This document shows, in pieces, positions 12,367-60,375 of a DNA stretch of 64,000 bases. The notes under the pieces were generated by a model that did no database searches, was not told the DNA's origin, and worked only from the letters and a program-made list of their open reading frames with translations. This DNA is from Nannocystis sp. RBIL2. GTDB lineage: Bacteria; Myxococcota_A; Polyangia; Nannocystales; Nannocystaceae. The first letter of the stretch is position 1; each line of letters opens with the position of its first letter. The position numbers and the translations under genes were made by a program. The stretch is taken from assembly GCF_026626745.1 (NCBI RefSeq), contig NZ_JAPNJW010000001.1, forward strand, positions 716,311-780,310. Reading direction: 5' to 3'.

Positions 12367-12418
12367 CCACCCCGTCGACGCCGACTCTGCCTGTCTCTTC
12401 GCGCAGGCCCTTCAAGAC

Positions 12419-14638: not shown

Positions 14639-14689
14639 GCCCCGCGTCCGCGATCTGTCCCGTGGGACAGGCCCGAGCACCCGGGCCCA

Positions 14690-14800
14690 CCAGTCGTCCT
14701 CGACTGCCGAGCTCGCCGGGCTTTCGACTGCCGAGCTCACAGCCCCAGCCGCCCCCGCGCACGAGCCGTCACCAGCAACTGCCGAGCTCGCCGAGCCCGC
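14690..14800. repeat. three copies of ACTGCCGAGCTC(G/A)C in the 285-bp spacer between flavoenzyme subunit genes; the GT-centred palindrome CTGTCCC-GT-GGGACAG lies just upstream at about 14655-14670
   Basis: Read directly from the sequence. Confidence 0.75.
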
Positions 14801-14923
14801 GACGGCCGAGCCCGCTCGCCTGTCTCCCGGGCCAGCCGCCGGCGACCTGTCCTTGCGGACATCCTGTCGGCGCTCGCCTCCCCTGTCGCCGCCGACCTCC
14901 CTCCTGCCCCCGCGAGGCCTGCC

Positions 14924-17628: not shown

Positions 17629-17695
17629 GCCGACTGGCCGCCAGGACATGTCCTCGCGGCCAGCTCGGCGGTGCCGTCCGTCCGGCTGAGCTCGC

Positions 17696-24470: not shown

Positions 24471-24477
24471 ACTTTAC

Positions 24478-24564
24478 GGCATGTCCGTGTGGACATGCCC
24501 TTTCATGCAGGGCCGTTCGGACATGTCCGAACGGCCCTGTCGCTTGCTCCGTCGACAAGCGACA
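24478..24564. terminator. cluster of three GC-rich palindromes (22, 32 and 25 nt) downstream of the acyl-CoA dehydrogenase
   Basis: GGCATGTCC-GTGT-GGACATGCC; a perfect 32-nt palindrome CAGGGCCGTTCGGACATGTCCGAACGGCCCTG; and GTCGCTTG-N9-CAAGCGAC. Confidence 0.6.
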
Positions 24565-24649
24565 CGAGCAGCCTGACGACCGCAATTCTCGAGCGCTCAT
24601 GGGCTCCCCACGCTGGGTCGCCTGCGCCAGGTCGGGCCCGAAAGCAGCA

Positions 24650-24677
24650 TGACCGCCAGGACATGTCCTGGCGGTCA
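24650..24677. terminator. perfect 28-nt palindrome TGACCGCCAGGACATGTCCTGGCGGTCA next to the convergent binding-protein gene end
   Basis: Read directly from the sequence; a candidate bidirectional terminator hairpin with a CATG core. Confidence 0.6.
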
Positions 24678-24702
24678 CGCCTCTCGCGCGGGTGAGCGCG
24701 GC

Positions 24703-33898: not shown

Positions 33899-35449
33899 AT
33901 GGAGCCAGCAGCGCGCAAGAGACCGGCGAAGCCGAGCACCGGAGAGACACCGCCGCGGCGCACGCGGGTCGATCGCGACAGCGTGCTGTTCGCGCTCGGC
34001 GAGCTCGTGCGCCGCGAGGTCGACCTCGACGCCTTGCTGGCGCAGGTCATCGACACCGTCACCCGGGCCATGGACGCCGACCGCGGCACCTTTTACCTGG
34101 TCGATCGGGCCCGCGGTGAGCTGTTCAGCAAGGCCGCGCACTTGCCGGAGCTGCGCGAGATCCGTCTCAAGGTCGGCCAGGGCATCGCCGGCCACGTCGC
34201 ACGCACCGGCGAGGCCATCAACCTCTCGCACACCGAGGGCGACCCGCGGTTTTACGGCGCCATCGATCGCGCCACCAACTACGCCACGCGCTCGATGCTG
34301 TGCGTCCCGGTGCTCGATCGCGCCGGCGAGATCCTCGGCGTCCTCCAGCTTCTCAACAAGAAGGGCGCCGCCTTCGACGACGACGACGAGGCCCTGCTGC
34401 GCGCGCTCGCCAGCCAGGTCGCCATGCTGGTCGAGAGCACCAGTCTTTACGGCCAGCTGCGGGCCCCCACCGGCGGACCGCTGCGCTACCGCTTCAACGG
34501 CGTGGTCGGCGGCGGCGCGCGGATGAGACGCGTCTACGATCTCGTGACACGGGCGGCGGGCACCGACGCCACCGTCCTCATCACCGGCGAGACCGGCACC
34601 GGCAAGGGTCTGATCGCGCGGGCGATCCACTACAACAGCCCGCGCGCCGGGCGGCCCTTCGTCGCCGTCGACTGCGCCTCGCTGCCGGCCACCTTGATCG
34701 AAAACGAGCTCTTCGGTCATGAGCGCGGCGCGTACACCGGGGCCGACCAGCGCAGCGTCGGCAAGTTCGAGGCCGCCGACGGCGGAACCGTCTTCCTCGA
34801 CGAGCTCGGCGAGGTCCCGCTCACGCTCCAGAGCAAGCTGCTGCGCGTCCTGCAGGACCGCGAGTTCGAGCGGGTCGGCGGGCGCAAGACCCTCAAGGTC
34901 GACGTCCGGATCCTCGCTGCCACCAACCGCAACCTCGAGGACATGGTCGCCCGCCAGCGCTTCCGCGAGGACCTCTACTACCGCCTGCGCGTGCTCTCGC
35001 TGGCCATGCCGCCGCTGCGCGAGCGCGGCCCCGAGGACCTCGAGCAGCTCGCCTATCACTTCCTGGCCGGCTTCGCCCAGCGCCACAACAAGCAGGTCGT
35101 GCGCTTCTCCCCGCCCGCGCTCGCGCGGCTGCATGGGCACAGCTGGCCCGGCAACATCCGTGAGCTCGAGAACTGCATCGAGGGCGCGGTCGTCCTCAGC
35201 GTCGGCGACGCCATCGAGGTCGCCGATCTGCCGCTGCCCGCCGACCCGCGCGAGCTCCCGGCCGCGGGCCGCAAGGCCGGTCGCGGCGGGACCGACCTCG
35301 CCCGGCTGTCGTGGAACGAGATGGAGAAGCTCTACATCGAGGCCGTGCTGGCCGCCCACGACGGCAACCGCAGCGGCGCTGCCCGGGCCATGGGCATCGG
35401 TCGCGCCACCCTCCTGCGCAAGATCAAGACCCTCAAGATCCGCGCCTGA
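33899..35449 (+). CDS. sigma-54-dependent transcriptional activator with N-terminal GAF domain
   Basis: GAF region, then AAA+ sigma-54 activation domain ([29 protein letters not shown]-like [14 protein letters not shown]), then a C-terminal Fis-type HTH. Confidence 0.85.
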
Positions 35450-35633
35450 CCTCGGGCCCGCACGGTCCGTTCGCCGCAGGTGCATCGTAACGATCCACCT
35501 GCCTCGCTTTGATACACCCCCGCTCCCATCGCTACCGCGACGTCCGCCGTTCACCCGCGCCACGACTCCGCAGCGGGCCCGTCACAGCGCCTGGCACGCC
35601 GGCTGCTAAGGGGTCTCGCGCAGGAGTCGAACG

Positions 35634-37202
<1,569 letters not shown>

Positions 37203-37277
37203 GCGACGACCCCGCCGCGGCCCGCGAGGGGCGTCGCTCGCGGCGACGCCCCTCGCGCCGTTCCCCGTAGTCGTCTT

Positions 37278-37499
37278 CGACCTGTCTCTCCGGACATCTC
37301 GCGCGCGCTCGGGCCGCGGCTGTGTTCAACCTGTCCCTTTGAACATATCGCGCTCCGACCGCGCCATACTCGACCTGTCTCTCCGGACATCTCGACCGCG
37401 CAGATCCACCCGTCATCGTTCAGGTGGATCACCTGCCCCTTCGGACATCCTCGAGGCGCGGCGCTCACCGGCTCGCCGCCTGTCCCTTCGGACATCCCA
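37278..37499. repeat. array of 5 spaced copies of a 24-bp unit CGACCTGTCyCTyCGGACATCyCG (units 1 and 3 identical), periodicity 44-59 bp
   Basis: Read directly from the sequence. Degenerate further copies occur at about 37570 and 37695, the latter overlapping the start of the downstream lipoprotein gene. Confidence 0.85.
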
Positions 37500-37657
37500 T
37501 CTCCGCTCCCCGCGGGCGGCGCCTGCGCCTGCGTTCGCGGCTCGCCCGGTCCCTTCCTCACCAGACCTGCGACTGTCCCCTCGCCTCGGTCTGCGCGACG
37601 CGCCTCGATTGCCGGGCGCGGTCCGGGGTCCACGTTTGCCTGAACTCTGGATCACCG

Positions 37658-38287
37658 ATGACCACGCCAGCTCCGACCTCGGCCGCCGCGCGCTCGACCT
37701 GTCTCTTGCGACATGTCGCCATCCTCTCCGCGCTCGCCGCCTGCGACCTCGTGCCGCGAGACGGCGACGACCCCGGCACCACCACCGCCGCCTCGACCAC
37801 CGGCGCTGCTGCCTGCCCGCTCAACGACGCCTGGGAGCCCAACGACGAACCCGACGATCCGACCGACGTCGCCTGGAGCGGCGTCAGCGAGTGGTCCGCC
37901 TACCACGAGGTCACCGACGCCTACCTCTGCCCCGGCGAGGACGACTGGTACCGCTTCGACGTCGCCAGCCTCGGTTACGGCGTCCACTACCTCTACGTGC
38001 GCGCTCTGGTGAGGGACGCCGGCCTGTGCGGGGCCGCGTGCGGGGAGCCCGTGCTCGCGCCCGGCCCCGACAACGCCATGACCATCGAGGTCTACCGCGC
38101 CGATACGCACGAGCCCTTGACCGCGCAGACGGCCGACGGTGGCGTGCTCGCGCTCGGTGGTTACGGCGACGACTACGCCGGCACTCTGCTGGTCCGCGTC
38201 CACAGCGACACCGCGACCGCCGAGTACCCCTATCGCCTGAGCGTCGAGCTCCGCAACTACGAAGGCGAGGACGAGTGTGAGTGCTGA
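37658..38287 (+). CDS. hypothetical lipoprotein
   Basis: Signal peptide and lipobox (LLRHVAILSALAACDL); Asp/Glu-rich, ending CEC. Confidence 0.5.
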   Translation: MTTPAPTSAAARSTCLLRHVAILSALAACDLVPRDGDDPGTTTAASTTGAAACPLNDAWEPNDEPDDPTDVAWSGVSEWSAYHEVTDAYLCPGEDDWYRFDVASLGYGVHYLYVRALVRDAGLCGAACGEPVLAPGPDNAMTIEVYRADTHEPLTAQTADGGVLALGGYGDDYAGTLLVRVHSDTATAEYPYRLSVELRNYEGEDECEC

Positions 38288-39296
38288 AGCCTCGGCGGGG
38301 CGCGTCGCGGTCGCGCTTCTCGCCGGCCTGGCGATCGCCTGCGGCGTCCCGACGCCGACCGGGACCACCGGCATCGACGACGAGCCCGCCGCGCGCGACC
38401 GCGTCGACGTCCACGTCCACCTCGTCGGCGGTGCAGTCGACGAGCTGCTCGCCGCGCTCGATCGCAACGCCATCGCCGCCGCCGTCGTGATCGCCTCGCC
38501 GCACCTCGATCCCGCGCTCGGCCTCGCTCCTGGCCCCGACGCGCGCATGCACGGCTGGCGCGAGGCCAACGACGCCCTGCTCGCCGCCACCGCGGCCCAC
38601 CGCGCGCGCCTGTTCCCGTTCGTCGCAGTCGAGCCGGCCGAGGTCGACATCCCCGCGCTCGAGCGGTGGTTTCAGGGCGGTGCTCGCGGCGTCAAGCTGT
38701 ACTTCGGCCACCAGAAGCTGCACGCCCGCCCGCTCGACGATCCGGCCCACGCCTCGCTGTTCGAGTGGCTCGAGCAGCGCTCCGTGCCCGTGCTCGTCCA
38801 CGTCAACACCGTGCGCTACCGCGACGAGCTCGCCCGCGTGCTGCGGGCCCACCCGCGCCTCGAGCTGGTCTGCGCGCACCTGTGCGGCAGCCGCACCGAC
38901 CTCGATCGCCTCGCCGGACTCCTGCGCGAGTTCCCGCGGCTGCGCGTCGACACTAGCCACGGCGCCGGCCTGCCCGGCGTCGACGGCTTCACCGCCATCG
39001 AGGAGGATCGGGATCGGCTGCGCGCTCTCATCGAGATCCAGCCCGAGCGGTTCCTGTACGGCTCCGACCTCGTCACCGCCCCCGGCGACCTCGACGCCGC
39101 GCGCGCCTGGGACCTGCAGCTCGCCGCCAACCTCGGCCTGCTCGAGCGCGAGCGGTTCGAGTTCTGGCGCCACGCCGCCCGGATCGGCGCGCTCACGCCC
39201 GGCGTCTACCACGGCCTCGCGCTCCCCGAGCCCGCCGTCTCCCGCGTGCTCGCCGGCAACGCCCGCGCCTGGCTCGGCGCCTACCGATCCCCGTAA
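38277..39296 (+). CDS. amidohydrolase-2 family metal-dependent hydrolase (TIM barrel) with lipoprotein signal
   Basis: Lipobox (LAGLAIACG); metal-ligand pattern VDVHVHLV ... HLCG ... D. Confidence 0.65.
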   Translation: MSAEASAGRVAVALLAGLAIACGVPTPTGTTGIDDEPAARDRVDVHVHLVGGAVDELLAALDRNAIAAAVVIASPHLDPALGLAPGPDARMHGWREANDALLAATAAHRARLFPFVAVEPAEVDIPALERWFQGGARGVKLYFGHQKLHARPLDDPAHASLFEWLEQRSVPVLVHVNTVRYRDELARVLRAHPRLELVCAHLCGSRTDLDRLAGLLREFPRLRVDTSHGAGLPGVDGFTAIEEDRDRLRALIEIQPERFLYGSDLVTAPGDLDAARAWDLQLAANLGLLERERFEFWRHAARIGALTPGVYHGLALPEPAVSRVLAGNARAWLGAYRSP

Positions 39297-39378
39297 TTTC
39301 AGAGCATGTCTCGAAGCACATGCCCCATCGAACATGCCCTGAAAGACATGCCCCATCGGGCATGCCCGTGAGCGCCGC
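39297..39378. repeat. 5 tandem 13-16-bp CATG-core units (AGAGCATGTCTCGA / AGCACATGCCCCATCG / AACATGCCCTGAA / AGACATGCCCCATCG / GGCATGCCCGTGAG) filling a convergent intergenic region
   Basis: Read directly from the sequence; the array occupies the entire space between two convergent stop codons. Confidence 0.85.
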
Positions 39379-45449: not shown

Positions 45450-45524
45450 TGTCTTCACGGACAGGCGCTCGAGAGCATGTTCTCACGGACATGTCTGGAC
45501 GATCATGTCCCCGCGGACATGTCC
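45450..45524. repeat. TGTC-N6-GACA element plus 4 tandem CATG-core units (GAGAGCATGTTCTCACG / GACATGTCTGGAC / GATCATGTCCCCGCG / GACATGTCCTCAG) in a convergent intergenic region
   Basis: Read directly from the sequence between the ABC ATPase stop and the mqnD stop. Confidence 0.85.
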
Positions 45525-60312: not shown

Positions 60313-60375
60313 GGGGCATGCTCGATCGCGCAGGTCTTGTTCGACATGTCCTCTCGGACATGTGCTTTGCGACAG
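60301..60375. repeat. CATG-core units and palindromes (CATGCCC-TGAG-GGGCATG; TTCGACATGTCCTCTCGGACATGTGC)
   Basis: Read directly from the sequence. Confidence 0.8.

Follow-up and report, generated by a model that had tools for sequence, protein, structure and literature searches.

A five-unit repeat array in Nannocystis as a candidate local amplification of a dispersed, genus-specific short-palindrome family

Five copies of a short dyad-symmetric unit stand in a row upstream of a lipoprotein gene in the 64 kb of Nannocystis DNA analysed here (the window). We lean towards reading this array as a local amplification of TGTCC-N4-GGACA, a dispersed short-palindrome family specific to the genus Nannocystis. 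The family is probably REP-like and recognised by a protein, a view that we infer, as we do its function, from patterns in the sequence. Dedicated control of the lipoprotein gene is not the role of the array. In the literature searched we could not find an earlier description of the family; searches on palindromic, REP or RAYT repeats of Nannocystis or myxobacteria, and on the motif strings, returned nothing on this dyad.

Results

The preliminary description of this DNA had reported a five-unit array upstream of the lipoprotein gene, and this was borne out at a level far above chance: with <=3 mismatches allowed, CCTGTCYCTYCGGACATC had 11 matches in the window against 0.19 expected, and 0 of 100 shuffles reached 11. 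All units lie on the + strand in a single, direct orientation; they are 72-100% identical to one another and start 49, 44, 58 and 47 nt apart. Units 1 (37277-37301) and 3 (37370-37394) had been called identical and do share the same 25 nt (TCGACCTGTCTCTCCGGACATCTCG) between unrelated flanks. Units 2 (37326-37350; right arm GAACA) and 4 (37428-37452; left arm TGCC) are degenerate. Only for unit 5 (37475-37499) is there a copy at the corresponding place in both N. pusilla (locus L110, position 7700) and locus L112 (position 2197), where the arms are kept and the spacer is different. Tandem Repeats Finder did not detect a tandem array because the spacers are unrelated. A BLAST overlap hinted that unit 4 came from a segmental duplication of the flotillin 3' end; this origin was rejected, as alignment confined the similarity to the unit. 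An Rfam covariance-model scan of 36500-38500 returned three chance-level matches only (E 4-8), none of them on the array, and scans of 37000-37900 for sigma-70 promoters and intrinsic terminators found nothing.

The array is preceded by a flotillin/SPFH gene (35634-37202). A perfect, G+C-rich 15-bp inverted repeat (37223-37257), 21 nt past the flotillin stop, resembles a terminator stem but has no T-run, and it is missing from L112 and L110. On the other side of the array, alignment revealed a conserved lipoprotein leader (37500-37657, + strand) that contains the block GTCCACGTTTGC and a sequence at ~37570; the latter had been listed as a further unit and turned out to be a left half only (CTGTCCCCTCG), with no GACA partner. 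The copy claimed at ~37695 in the region coding for the lipoprotein signal peptide was found, with exact arms, at 37694-37718 (+ strand, CGACCTGTCTCTTGCGACATGTCG). L110 and L112 both retain this dyad, its flanks having changed (C..T, A..T, C..G), and its predicted hairpin has -9.0 kcal/mol.

Solitary copies at 14846 and ~6497 were confirmed. The one placed at 12392 is present, in split form: TGTC-N20-GACA, equivalent to two 14-nt registers with a decayed middle. Eleven exact dyads had been missed (2483, 11475, 13582, 14656, 18742, 24482, 37172, 45450, 45506, 47551 and 60347). Among what went unreported was the dyad in the last codons of the flotillin gene (37170-37187, + strand, CCTGTCCCCGCGGACAGC), which encodes P-V-P-A-D-S; its arms are kept in 5/5 orthologous loci, with variation in the 6-nt spacer and in the residues encoded.

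The core of the array units is a dyad, TGTC-N6-GACA, mostly in the form TGTCC-N4-GGACA. The inverted GACA pair had been recognised before; the spacer of 6-8 nt then assigned to it is exactly 6 nt, with other spacings at background. The window has 17 TGTC-N6-GACA sites and 0-1 each for N4, N5, N7 and N8, and 302,357 bp from 38 Nannocystis loci have 175 such sites, where each other spacing in the range N2-N11 gives 0-6. These 302 kb were picked because each locus has one copy, and 135 of the 175 sites exceed the ~40 copies by which the loci were recruited; the unselected sequence behind any genome-wide extrapolation is the 64-kb window. Extrapolated, a density of ~1 copy per 2-4 kb would give thousands of copies in a 12-Mb Nannocystis genome, above the >100 per genome that is asked of REP families. 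The unit thus recurs at hundreds of genomic positions (17 in the window, 175 in the 302 kb), an outcome that the preliminary description had named as speaking against a regulatory array. In 69 loci from other taxa, 76 dyad sites were counted where ~1 per locus was expected from locus selection, which is no excess. A genome scan of 185,579 species gave 109 matches, ~40 of them in Nannocystis or Nannocystaceae.

A position weight matrix of 149 sites showed no GTAG or CGTC tag; only G-A-[C/G]-[C/A] adjoins the arms, and the half-site consensus is G-A-[C/G]-[C/A]-TGTCC. The natural register of the family is 14 nt (GGACATGTCC-N4 repeated), with inverted-pair spacings peaking at 6, 20, 34 and 48 nt and everted-pair spacings at 0, 14, 28 and 42 nt. 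Arrays of >=3 units occur 27 times in 366 kb. Most units in the other arrays are direct, and the remaining clusters are 14-nt head-to-tail chains; one array of near-identical units (ACCTGTCYCTYCGGMCATCT; L095 5390-5510) has a spacing of 53-54 nt. Within the window, a degenerate chain of five units (ACATGYCC-N6; 39300-39375) in strict 14-nt register, also missed earlier, lies in a convergent spacer at the opposite end of the lipoprotein-amidohydrolase cassette, and three dyads at 28-nt (2 x 14) spacing lie in an intergenic spacer (45450-45519).

Recent transposition of a longer element was considered as a source of the copies and rejected: unlinked copies are alike over only ~22 nt, and near-identical pairs are orthologues only. 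Pairwise identity of copies at 34 variable positions peaks at 13. Searching ~0.9 Mb by tblastn with two approximate RayT/IS200 queries gave no RAYT/IS200-type transposase, a search of low power because RAYTs are single-copy.

Dyads concentrate in non-coding DNA directly past stop codons. Per kb, convergent spacers had 3.05 dyads, tandem spacers 1.35, divergent spacers 0.74 and coding sequence 0.28. These values are approximate, as are all our location statistics, since genes were called with a crude GC3-based caller. In tandem spacers 30 of 52 dyads lie <=100 nt from the upstream stop. Family members lie outside genes in 59% of cases (~40% in genes). On these approximate calls, the location is that of REP elements, predominantly extragenic and favouring gene 3' ends. 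Two cases in the window are a dyad 12 nt past the stop of an acyl-CoA dehydrogenase gene (24482-24495) and the dyad GACATGTCCTCTCGGACATGT, 35 nt past a stop codon (60347-60360).

Single copies, chains and arrays all occur, and copy number shifts between close relatives. The array spacer holds 5 units in the window, 3 in N. pusilla, whose flotillin is 93% identical to that of the window, and 1 in L112; N. bainbridge and L113 lack the whole lipoprotein-amidohydrolase pair. Across 21.8 kb of synteny with N. punicea (96% identity in the acyl-CoA dehydrogenase), 1 exact dyad in that species compares with 5 in the window. Both dyads of the spacer ahead of the 2Fe-2S subunit gene (14656 and 14848; 14656-14861) are absent from N. 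punicea, and dyad 24482 amounts to exactly 14 extra nt relative to that species. Such a difference of exactly one 14-nt register in a neighbouring dyad suggests that new copies arise mainly via local duplication or slippage. The first post-stop dyad, on the other hand, was kept in 3/3 alignable N. pusilla/N. bainbridge spacers despite indels in the flanks. The copy nearest the gene end may tend to be held by selection while extra copies are gained and lost. Unit 5, the leader and the signal-peptide dyad are conserved in three genomes, and on the strength of this conservation unit 5 and the signal-peptide copy might yet make some contribution to lipoprotein expression.

It had been proposed that the units are enhancer sites (upstream activator sequences) of the GAF sigma-54 activator whose gene (33899-35449) lies 2 kb upstream of the array. 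The array does look like such sites in that they are dyad-symmetric, follow one another in tandem and neighbour an activator gene. We consider this reading close to refuted and give it hardly any probability. No sigma-54 promoter (TGGCACG-N4-TTGCW, <=3 mismatches) was found between 37203 and 37660, a range that takes in the DNA between the array and the lipoprotein start, whereas genuine sites of this type would have a -24/-12 promoter (GG-N10-GC) ~70-200 bp downstream. The best sigma-54 promoter match of the whole window (CTGGCACGCCGGCTGCT, about 35591-35607) is instead found 41 nt ahead of the flotillin start and is conserved in five orthologous loci. Because this conserved match precedes flotillin, the likely target of the activator is flotillin. 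The array is located past this promoter, the one conserved sigma-54 promoter in the neighbourhood. The dyad is moreover spread genome-wide and not confined to a few target promoters, favours 3' flanks and varies in unit number, and N. bainbridge and L113 retain the activator and flotillin without the array or the lipoprotein gene. The regular spacing of 4.5-5.5 helical turns that had been described did not hold up, as the four spacings show no helical phasing. An exact-sequence look-up of the activator protein returned no record.

Since its spacing is fixed and its arms are invariant, recognition of the dyad by some sequence-specific protein is plausible; this would be a genome-wide factor, not the GAF sigma-54 activator. 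A test for hairpin covariation found none. The fifth pair is T-G in 35 sites, C-A in 22 and T-A in 2 only, its Watson-Crick counts equal the expectation from column frequencies, and compensated arm variants are not enriched (TGCC-N6-GGCA 6 vs a background of 9.9). Because arms and spacer length are fixed, the spacer sequence is free and compensatory changes are absent, it would be the sequence of the arms that is recognised, probably by a protein dimer on duplex DNA or on the extruded stem.

Strict spacing, invariant arms, a free spacer and independent decay of half-sites form the classic signature of a dimer site, and the dyads have all four, with N6 as the strict spacing. The units could on this ground be operators of a dimeric DNA-binding protein, a global regulator or nucleoid-associated protein, with the cluster loading several dimers and either controlling the lipoprotein promoter or insulating it from flotillin read-through. 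The conservation of unit 5, the leader and the signal-peptide copy in three genomes, and the one orientation common to all units, also agree with this. We regard it nevertheless as unlikely, though worth keeping in mind, given the thousands of sites, which abound past stops and in convergent spacers and are scarce in divergent promoter regions, the 5, 3 or 1 units in close relatives, the spacings without helical phasing, and a damaged arm in 2/5 units. Two known types of site were compared with the dyad and set apart. MrpC and CooA sites (TGTC-N8-GACA, of the CRP/FNR type) have N8 in place of the N6 found here. The LexA box is CTGT-N8-ACAG; in the dyads A, not C, precedes TGTC in 42% of sites, and their copy number is far too high.

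The stem-loops of E. coli REP elements have roles at the RNA level, and units transcribed as part of the flotillin 3' UTR or of the lipoprotein 5' UTR could likewise end transcription, stop 3' exonucleases or be bound by an RNA-binding protein. The 3'-flank bias of the family, the conserved first post-stop dyad, the long, perfect hairpins of related sequence (-27 to -31 kcal/mol) directly past stop codons, and the folding of the whole spacer, which is more stable than that of shuffles (z -6.6), all point this way. The units themselves fold weakly, however, at -4 to -9 kcal/mol (z -1.3 to -2.8): unit 1 has a predicted RNA hairpin of just -6.2 kcal/mol (z -1.3), unit 2 falls within the loop closed by another stem, TGTTCAA/TTGAACA, and in the folding predictions neither unit 2 nor unit 4 forms the canonical stem, unit 4 having no fold at all. 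Compensatory changes are lacking, as described above. RNA-specific selection was looked for as a strand bias relative to transcription and gave no signal in spacers: orientation is unbiased for asymmetric units, and G-U on the sense strand is not favoured over C-A (16 vs 20). Nor was an intrinsic terminator, a G+C-rich stem plus T-run, found; the terminator scan was empty at the array, and past 47 oriented post-stop dyads there is no T-run, the T fraction being 0.171 on either side. Action in RNA seems to us improbable on balance, a little more so than the operator function.

We also asked whether the array could be a decayed protein-coding tandem repeat of the P-V-P-S-D-I type. Read in the CCT GTC frame, each unit gives RPVSPDIS, QPVPLNIS, SPAPSDIL or PPVPSDIP, the flotillin tail is PVPADS, and in L097 (5504-7996) there are in-frame PPVPSDTLSF repeats with a 72-nt period. 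The spacings of the array are not multiples of 3, however, so the units switch between frames; the 455-nt spacer is non-coding, with a GC3 of 0.68-0.74 in all six frames vs 0.90-0.97 in the flanking genes; and 59% of the family lies outside genes. A coding remnant is in our opinion very improbable.

Discussion

Among the closest known systems are several repeat families. REP/BIME elements (PMC2817692, PMC3116915), which are found in Enterobacteria and Pseudomonas and mobilised by RAYT transposases, are like the Nannocystis dyads short imperfect palindromes in hundreds to thousands of lineage-specific copies. Both lie mainly outside genes and prefer convergent spacers and the 3' flanks of genes, are single or clustered with copy number varying between relatives, and conserve the stem sequence itself beyond its ability to pair. 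The Nannocystis core differs in being only 14 bp long (~22-24 nt with its partly symmetric flanks), compared with REP stem-loop palindromes of ~20-40 nt, and in having a centre of 4 nt with fixed length. Its clusters are direct with irregular spacing, or 14-nt chains, and not alternating BIME pairs or REPIN doublets; ~40% of copies are in genes; and no RAYT has been found so far, by a low-power search of ~0.9 Mb. The dyad also carries no conserved GTAG or CGTC tag, and membership in the REP family proper is therefore not established. The SMAG repeats of Stenotrophomonas (PMC3733652) are very short stem-loops with >1000 copies per genome, often in dimers or clusters in spacers, as here, and again the Nannocystis dyad lacks the terminal tetranucleotide that defines GTAG/CGTC repeats; the survey of such tagged repeats does not mention myxobacteria (PMC3733652).

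HIP1 of cyanobacteria (GCGATCGC; PMC5861425, PMC4390886) is another short palindrome with tens-of-fold over-representation genome-wide. Like the dyad it occurs in genes and spacers, has individual sites conserved between species and lacks a link to a transposase; a role at the DNA level is suspected, for example in methylation, recombination or uptake (PMC5861425, PMC4390886). HIP1 is however a contiguous 8-mer and not a 5-4-5 dyad, and it has neither fixed-register tandem arrays nor a marked bias to gene 3' flanks. With a CRISPR the array shares repeats of ~24 nt and unique spacers of 20-35 nt. The preliminary description had ruled a CRISPR out, correctly: the five repeats are non-uniform, single copies of the unit are dispersed over the genome, and a Pfam scan of the four adjacent genes (GAF sigma-54 activator, flotillin, lipoprotein, amidohydrolase) detected no Cas family.

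The fallback offered there, that the units could as well be a selfish repeat, comes close to the data. In the local amplification that we favour, the five units, which lie in the 3' flank of a flotillin gene driven by sigma-54 and in the distal lipoprotein leader, would most likely be REP-like filler that was carried along. Their effect may at most be a generic one at the 3' end of the gene, as a weak stem-loop, a protein roadblock or an insulator. A more far-reaching and speculative idea, to which we give little credence, is that an abundant protein specific to Nannocystis recognises TGTCC-N4-GGACA / GGACATGTCC by sequence and so marks the 3' ends of thousands of genes, as a dedicated factor-dependent terminator, insulator or chromosome-organising system. 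Cooperative loading of this protein, not selfish spread, would then lie behind the arrays, the 14-nt chains and the conserved first post-stop site.

At this locus, a regulatory explanation that was tempting but wrong is thereby removed, and the array is left as generic genomic furniture. For the genus, it describes a 5-4-5 dyad with a 14-nt register, thousands of copies by extrapolation and a bias to gene ends, part of it conserved, part in rapid flux, and found even in frame inside genes. Repeat families of this kind mark sites of recombination and indels, and they mislead motif discovery, the prediction of sRNAs and terminators, and genome assembly. The genome announcement of N. exedens reported unresolved repetitive regions (PMC5658511). 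If a dedicated binding protein exists, the family would open a tractable experimental route to the question of how a very G+C-rich genome, in which no T-run follows the post-stop dyads, defines the ends of its genes.

Some relatives of the motif are longer. After dyad 24482 come two perfect palindromes of 32 and 34 nt (24508-24539 and 24647-24680) with GGACATGTCC at the apex, and long perfect palindromes with this apex have covarying lower stems. This shows that forming an actual stem-loop is of importance in at least some of the motif's relatives, and a pure reading of duplex DNA sits awkwardly with it.

The array and its neighbouring genes

A preliminary description of the window had reported five good repeat units upstream of a lipoprotein gene (37658-38287). 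All five were located, on the + strand at 37277-37301, 37326-37350, 37370-37394, 37428-37452 and 37475-37499, and units 1 and 3, described as identical, are the same over 25 nt. A further copy lies on the same strand in the lipoprotein signal-peptide region (37694-37718). At about 37570, where another unit had been placed, a half-site is present and the full unit is absent; a solitary copy reported at 12392 exists but is split. The spacer separating the lipoprotein gene from the flotillin-like SPFH gene (35634-37202) is non-coding, with GC3 below that of the flanking genes in every frame. With up to 3 mismatches allowed, the 18-mer consensus matched the window 11 times, against 0.19 matches expected from shuffles. 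The array is real and highly non-random.

The array had also been likened to clustered transcription-factor sites, such as enhancer-like sites for the GAF sigma-54 activator encoded at 33899-35449, as much as to a selfish repeat. The stretch from the array to the lipoprotein start contained no sigma-54 promoter. The window's best match, the strong predicted promoter CTGGCACGCCGGCTGCT (35591-35607), is positioned directly downstream of the activator gene and 41 nt before the flotillin/SPFH start codon (35634). All five orthologous loci (L110-L114) conserve it, even those that lack the array or the lipoprotein gene. The conserved promoter before flotillin, and the lack of one after the array, speak against a locus-specific enhancer array and point to flotillin as the activator's likely target. 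Activator and sigma-54-dependent flotillin look like a conserved module.

The window, N. pusilla and environmental contig L112 share an invariant block, GTCCACGTTTGC (37632-37643 in the window), approximately 20 nt upstream of the lipoprotein ATG. It was ruled out as a sigma-54 site because in N. pusilla its GG-to-GC spacing is off by one. The true lipoprotein start is uncertain: translation from the annotated ATG (37658) adds 16 N-terminal residues that are poorly conserved, and a TTG at 37706, in frame and within the loop formed by the signal-peptide dyad, would yield a canonical short lipoprotein signal, MRHVAILSALAAC.

A genus-wide dyad repeat

The array belongs to a REP-like dyad repeat found across the genus, of which it is an ordinary local cluster. 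The invariant core of the unit is TGTC-N6-GACA, usually TGTCC-N4-GGACA. The 64-kb window has 17 such dyads, against 0-1 for versions with N4, N5, N7 or N8. When ACCTGTCYNNNNGGACATC was searched in one genome per prokaryotic species, at least 109 loci were retrieved, and among the matches listed approximately 40 belonged to Nannocystis or unnamed Nannocystaceae. Across 302 kb from 38 Nannocystis loci there were 175 N6 dyads and only 0-6 dyads at each other spacing from N2 to N11, whereas in 69 loci of other taxa the N6 dyad did not exceed the copies by which the loci had been retrieved. The window is itself Nannocystis DNA: identity is 96% to N. punicea for the acyl-CoA dehydrogenase and 93% to N. 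pusilla for the flotillin. At the observed density of 0.27-0.45 dyads per kb, a 12-Mb genome would hold roughly 3,000-5,000 copies, a number extrapolated from density and not counted.

Dyad density differs sharply among close lineages. A syntenic 21.8 kb of N. punicea (L115) contains one exact dyad, compared to five in the window stretch, and two relatives of about 80% identity (L113 and L116) have 0-1 in 13.6-21.8 kb. Across the window and all the Nannocystis loci, CGAC-N6-GTCG, CGAG-N6-CTCG and CGTC-N6-GACG are 2-3-fold above the mean of the other spacings, an excess that may reflect codon periodicity, with spacer lengths in multiples of 3.

Probable recognition of the arms

The fifth arm pair is C-G at 111 sites, T-G at 35, C-A at 22 and T-A at only 2, so that the arms lack covariation. 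Inner-pair Watson-Crick counts match the prediction from column frequencies, and pairing-preserving arm variants were not enriched. Spacer length is nearly fixed (192 N6 sites vs. 4 with N5 and 6 with N7). The array units are weak predicted hairpins (-4 to -9 kcal/mol, z -1.3 to -2.8), and in units 2 and 4 the canonical stem is not formed in the predicted folding. Among intergenic copies, neither the orientation of asymmetric units nor the distribution of G-U vs. C-A showed a bias relative to transcription. Together, the missing covariation, fixed spacer, weak hairpins and absent strand bias favour a reading in which the arm sequence is recognised at a set geometry, for example by a dimeric protein, over one based on a generic RNA stem.

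Relatives of the dyad with GGACATGTCC at the apex count against a purely duplex reading. These palindromes (17634-17663, 24508-24539 and 24647-24680) are 30-34 nt long, perfect or with one mismatch, and located just 3' of stop codons, with predicted stems of -27 to -31 kcal/mol. N. punicea retains them (L115 4755, 4821, 11833 and 12031), one in duplicate, and their lower stems vary by locus yet remain complementary. By these features they look like true stem-loops. For the dyad repeat itself, a sequence-specific protein is probably the reader.

Register, gain and loss of copies

The half-site consensus is G-A-[C/G]-[C/A]-TGTCC, and the central four bases are variable, most commonly CGAG/CTCG, CTTC and CCGA. 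Copies follow a 14-nt register: inverted-pair spacers peak at 6, 20, 34 and 48 nt and everted pairs (GACA-TGTC) at 0, 14, 28 and 42 nt, which indicates that many copies are pieces of GGACATGTCC-N4 chains. One decayed chain occupies the convergent spacer 39300-39375. In 366 kb there are 27 arrays of at least three units, whose periods are 14, 28, 37-42 or 50-82 nt, and the units of one N. bainbridge array (L095 5390-5510) are nearly identical to those of the window. Unlinked copies have approximately 22 nt in common and nothing further, and thus no longer element is being moved. The dyad at 24482 (window 24471-24510) corresponds to exactly 14 extra nt, one register, relative to N. punicea L115 11810-11835, which suggests that the repeat grows as 14-nt units are added through slippage or duplication.

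Orthologous loci share the gene order activator, flotillin, (lipoprotein, amidohydrolase), followed by a convergent Exo_endo_phos gene. The two-gene cassette of lipoprotein and Amidohydro_2 (window 37658-39296) is carried by the window, N. pusilla and L112; in N. bainbridge (L111) and L113, which lack it, flotillin directly faces the Exo_endo_phos gene. Both cassette junctions carry dyad repeats. The flotillin-lipoprotein spacer holds five units in the window, three in N. pusilla and one in L112, with only the last unit and a 160-nt leader common to all. The flotillin-tail dyad keeps its arms in five of five genomes while its spacer and encoded residues change, and the signal-peptide dyad persists in three genomes, where its flanks read C..T, A..T and C..G. 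In the N. pusilla and N. bainbridge spacers, the first post-stop dyad is kept in all three that can be aligned, despite surrounding indels, whereas extra array members are not. Within the family, then, a subset of sites is under constraint while copies are rapidly gained and lost locally.

Placement and known systems

According to our own GC3-based gene calls, intergenic DNA makes up only about 22% of the sequence but holds 113 of the 192 dyads. Convergent spacers are the richest, with 3.05 dyads per kb, followed by tandem spacers with 1.35 and divergent ones with 0.74; coding sequence has 0.28. Of the 52 dyads in tandem spacers, 30 are within 100 nt of the upstream stop. This placement is that known for REP elements and terminators and is unlike that of promoter-bound regulators. 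A T-run was looked for after the dyads and none was found.

The nearest known systems are REP/BIME and SMAG-type repeats, which the dyad repeat resembles in its copy number, its restriction to one lineage, its preference for 3' flanks and its clustering. However, the GTAG or CGTC tag that defines REPs is absent from the dyad, and their alternating orientation is absent from its clusters. A low-powered tblastn search with approximate queries over about 0.9 Mb found no RAYT/IS200. An Rfam scan of 36500-38500 gave no relevant match, no description was found in the literature searched, and the repeat is apparently undescribed so far. Selfish persistence, marking of gene 3' ends and chromosome organisation are candidate roles.

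Like cyanobacterial HIP1, the dyad is a short palindrome that genes, too, tolerate and conserve. Coding dyads in the Nannocystis loci favour the frames x-V-x-x-D-[I/M/T] (41 sites) and [L/M]-S-x-x-T (28 sites) and avoid the cysteine frame (8 sites), a bias that fits a DNA-level motif filtered by protein tolerance. Some of the arrays run in frame within genes. In N. radixulma, a long ORF (L097 5504-7996, GC3 0.90) carries the dyad in frame within a 72-nt (24-residue) repeat AARDPPVPSDTLSFGASRTASAPS; this in-gene array encodes a PPVPSDTLSF repeat, and the family thus exists also as coding tandem repeats.
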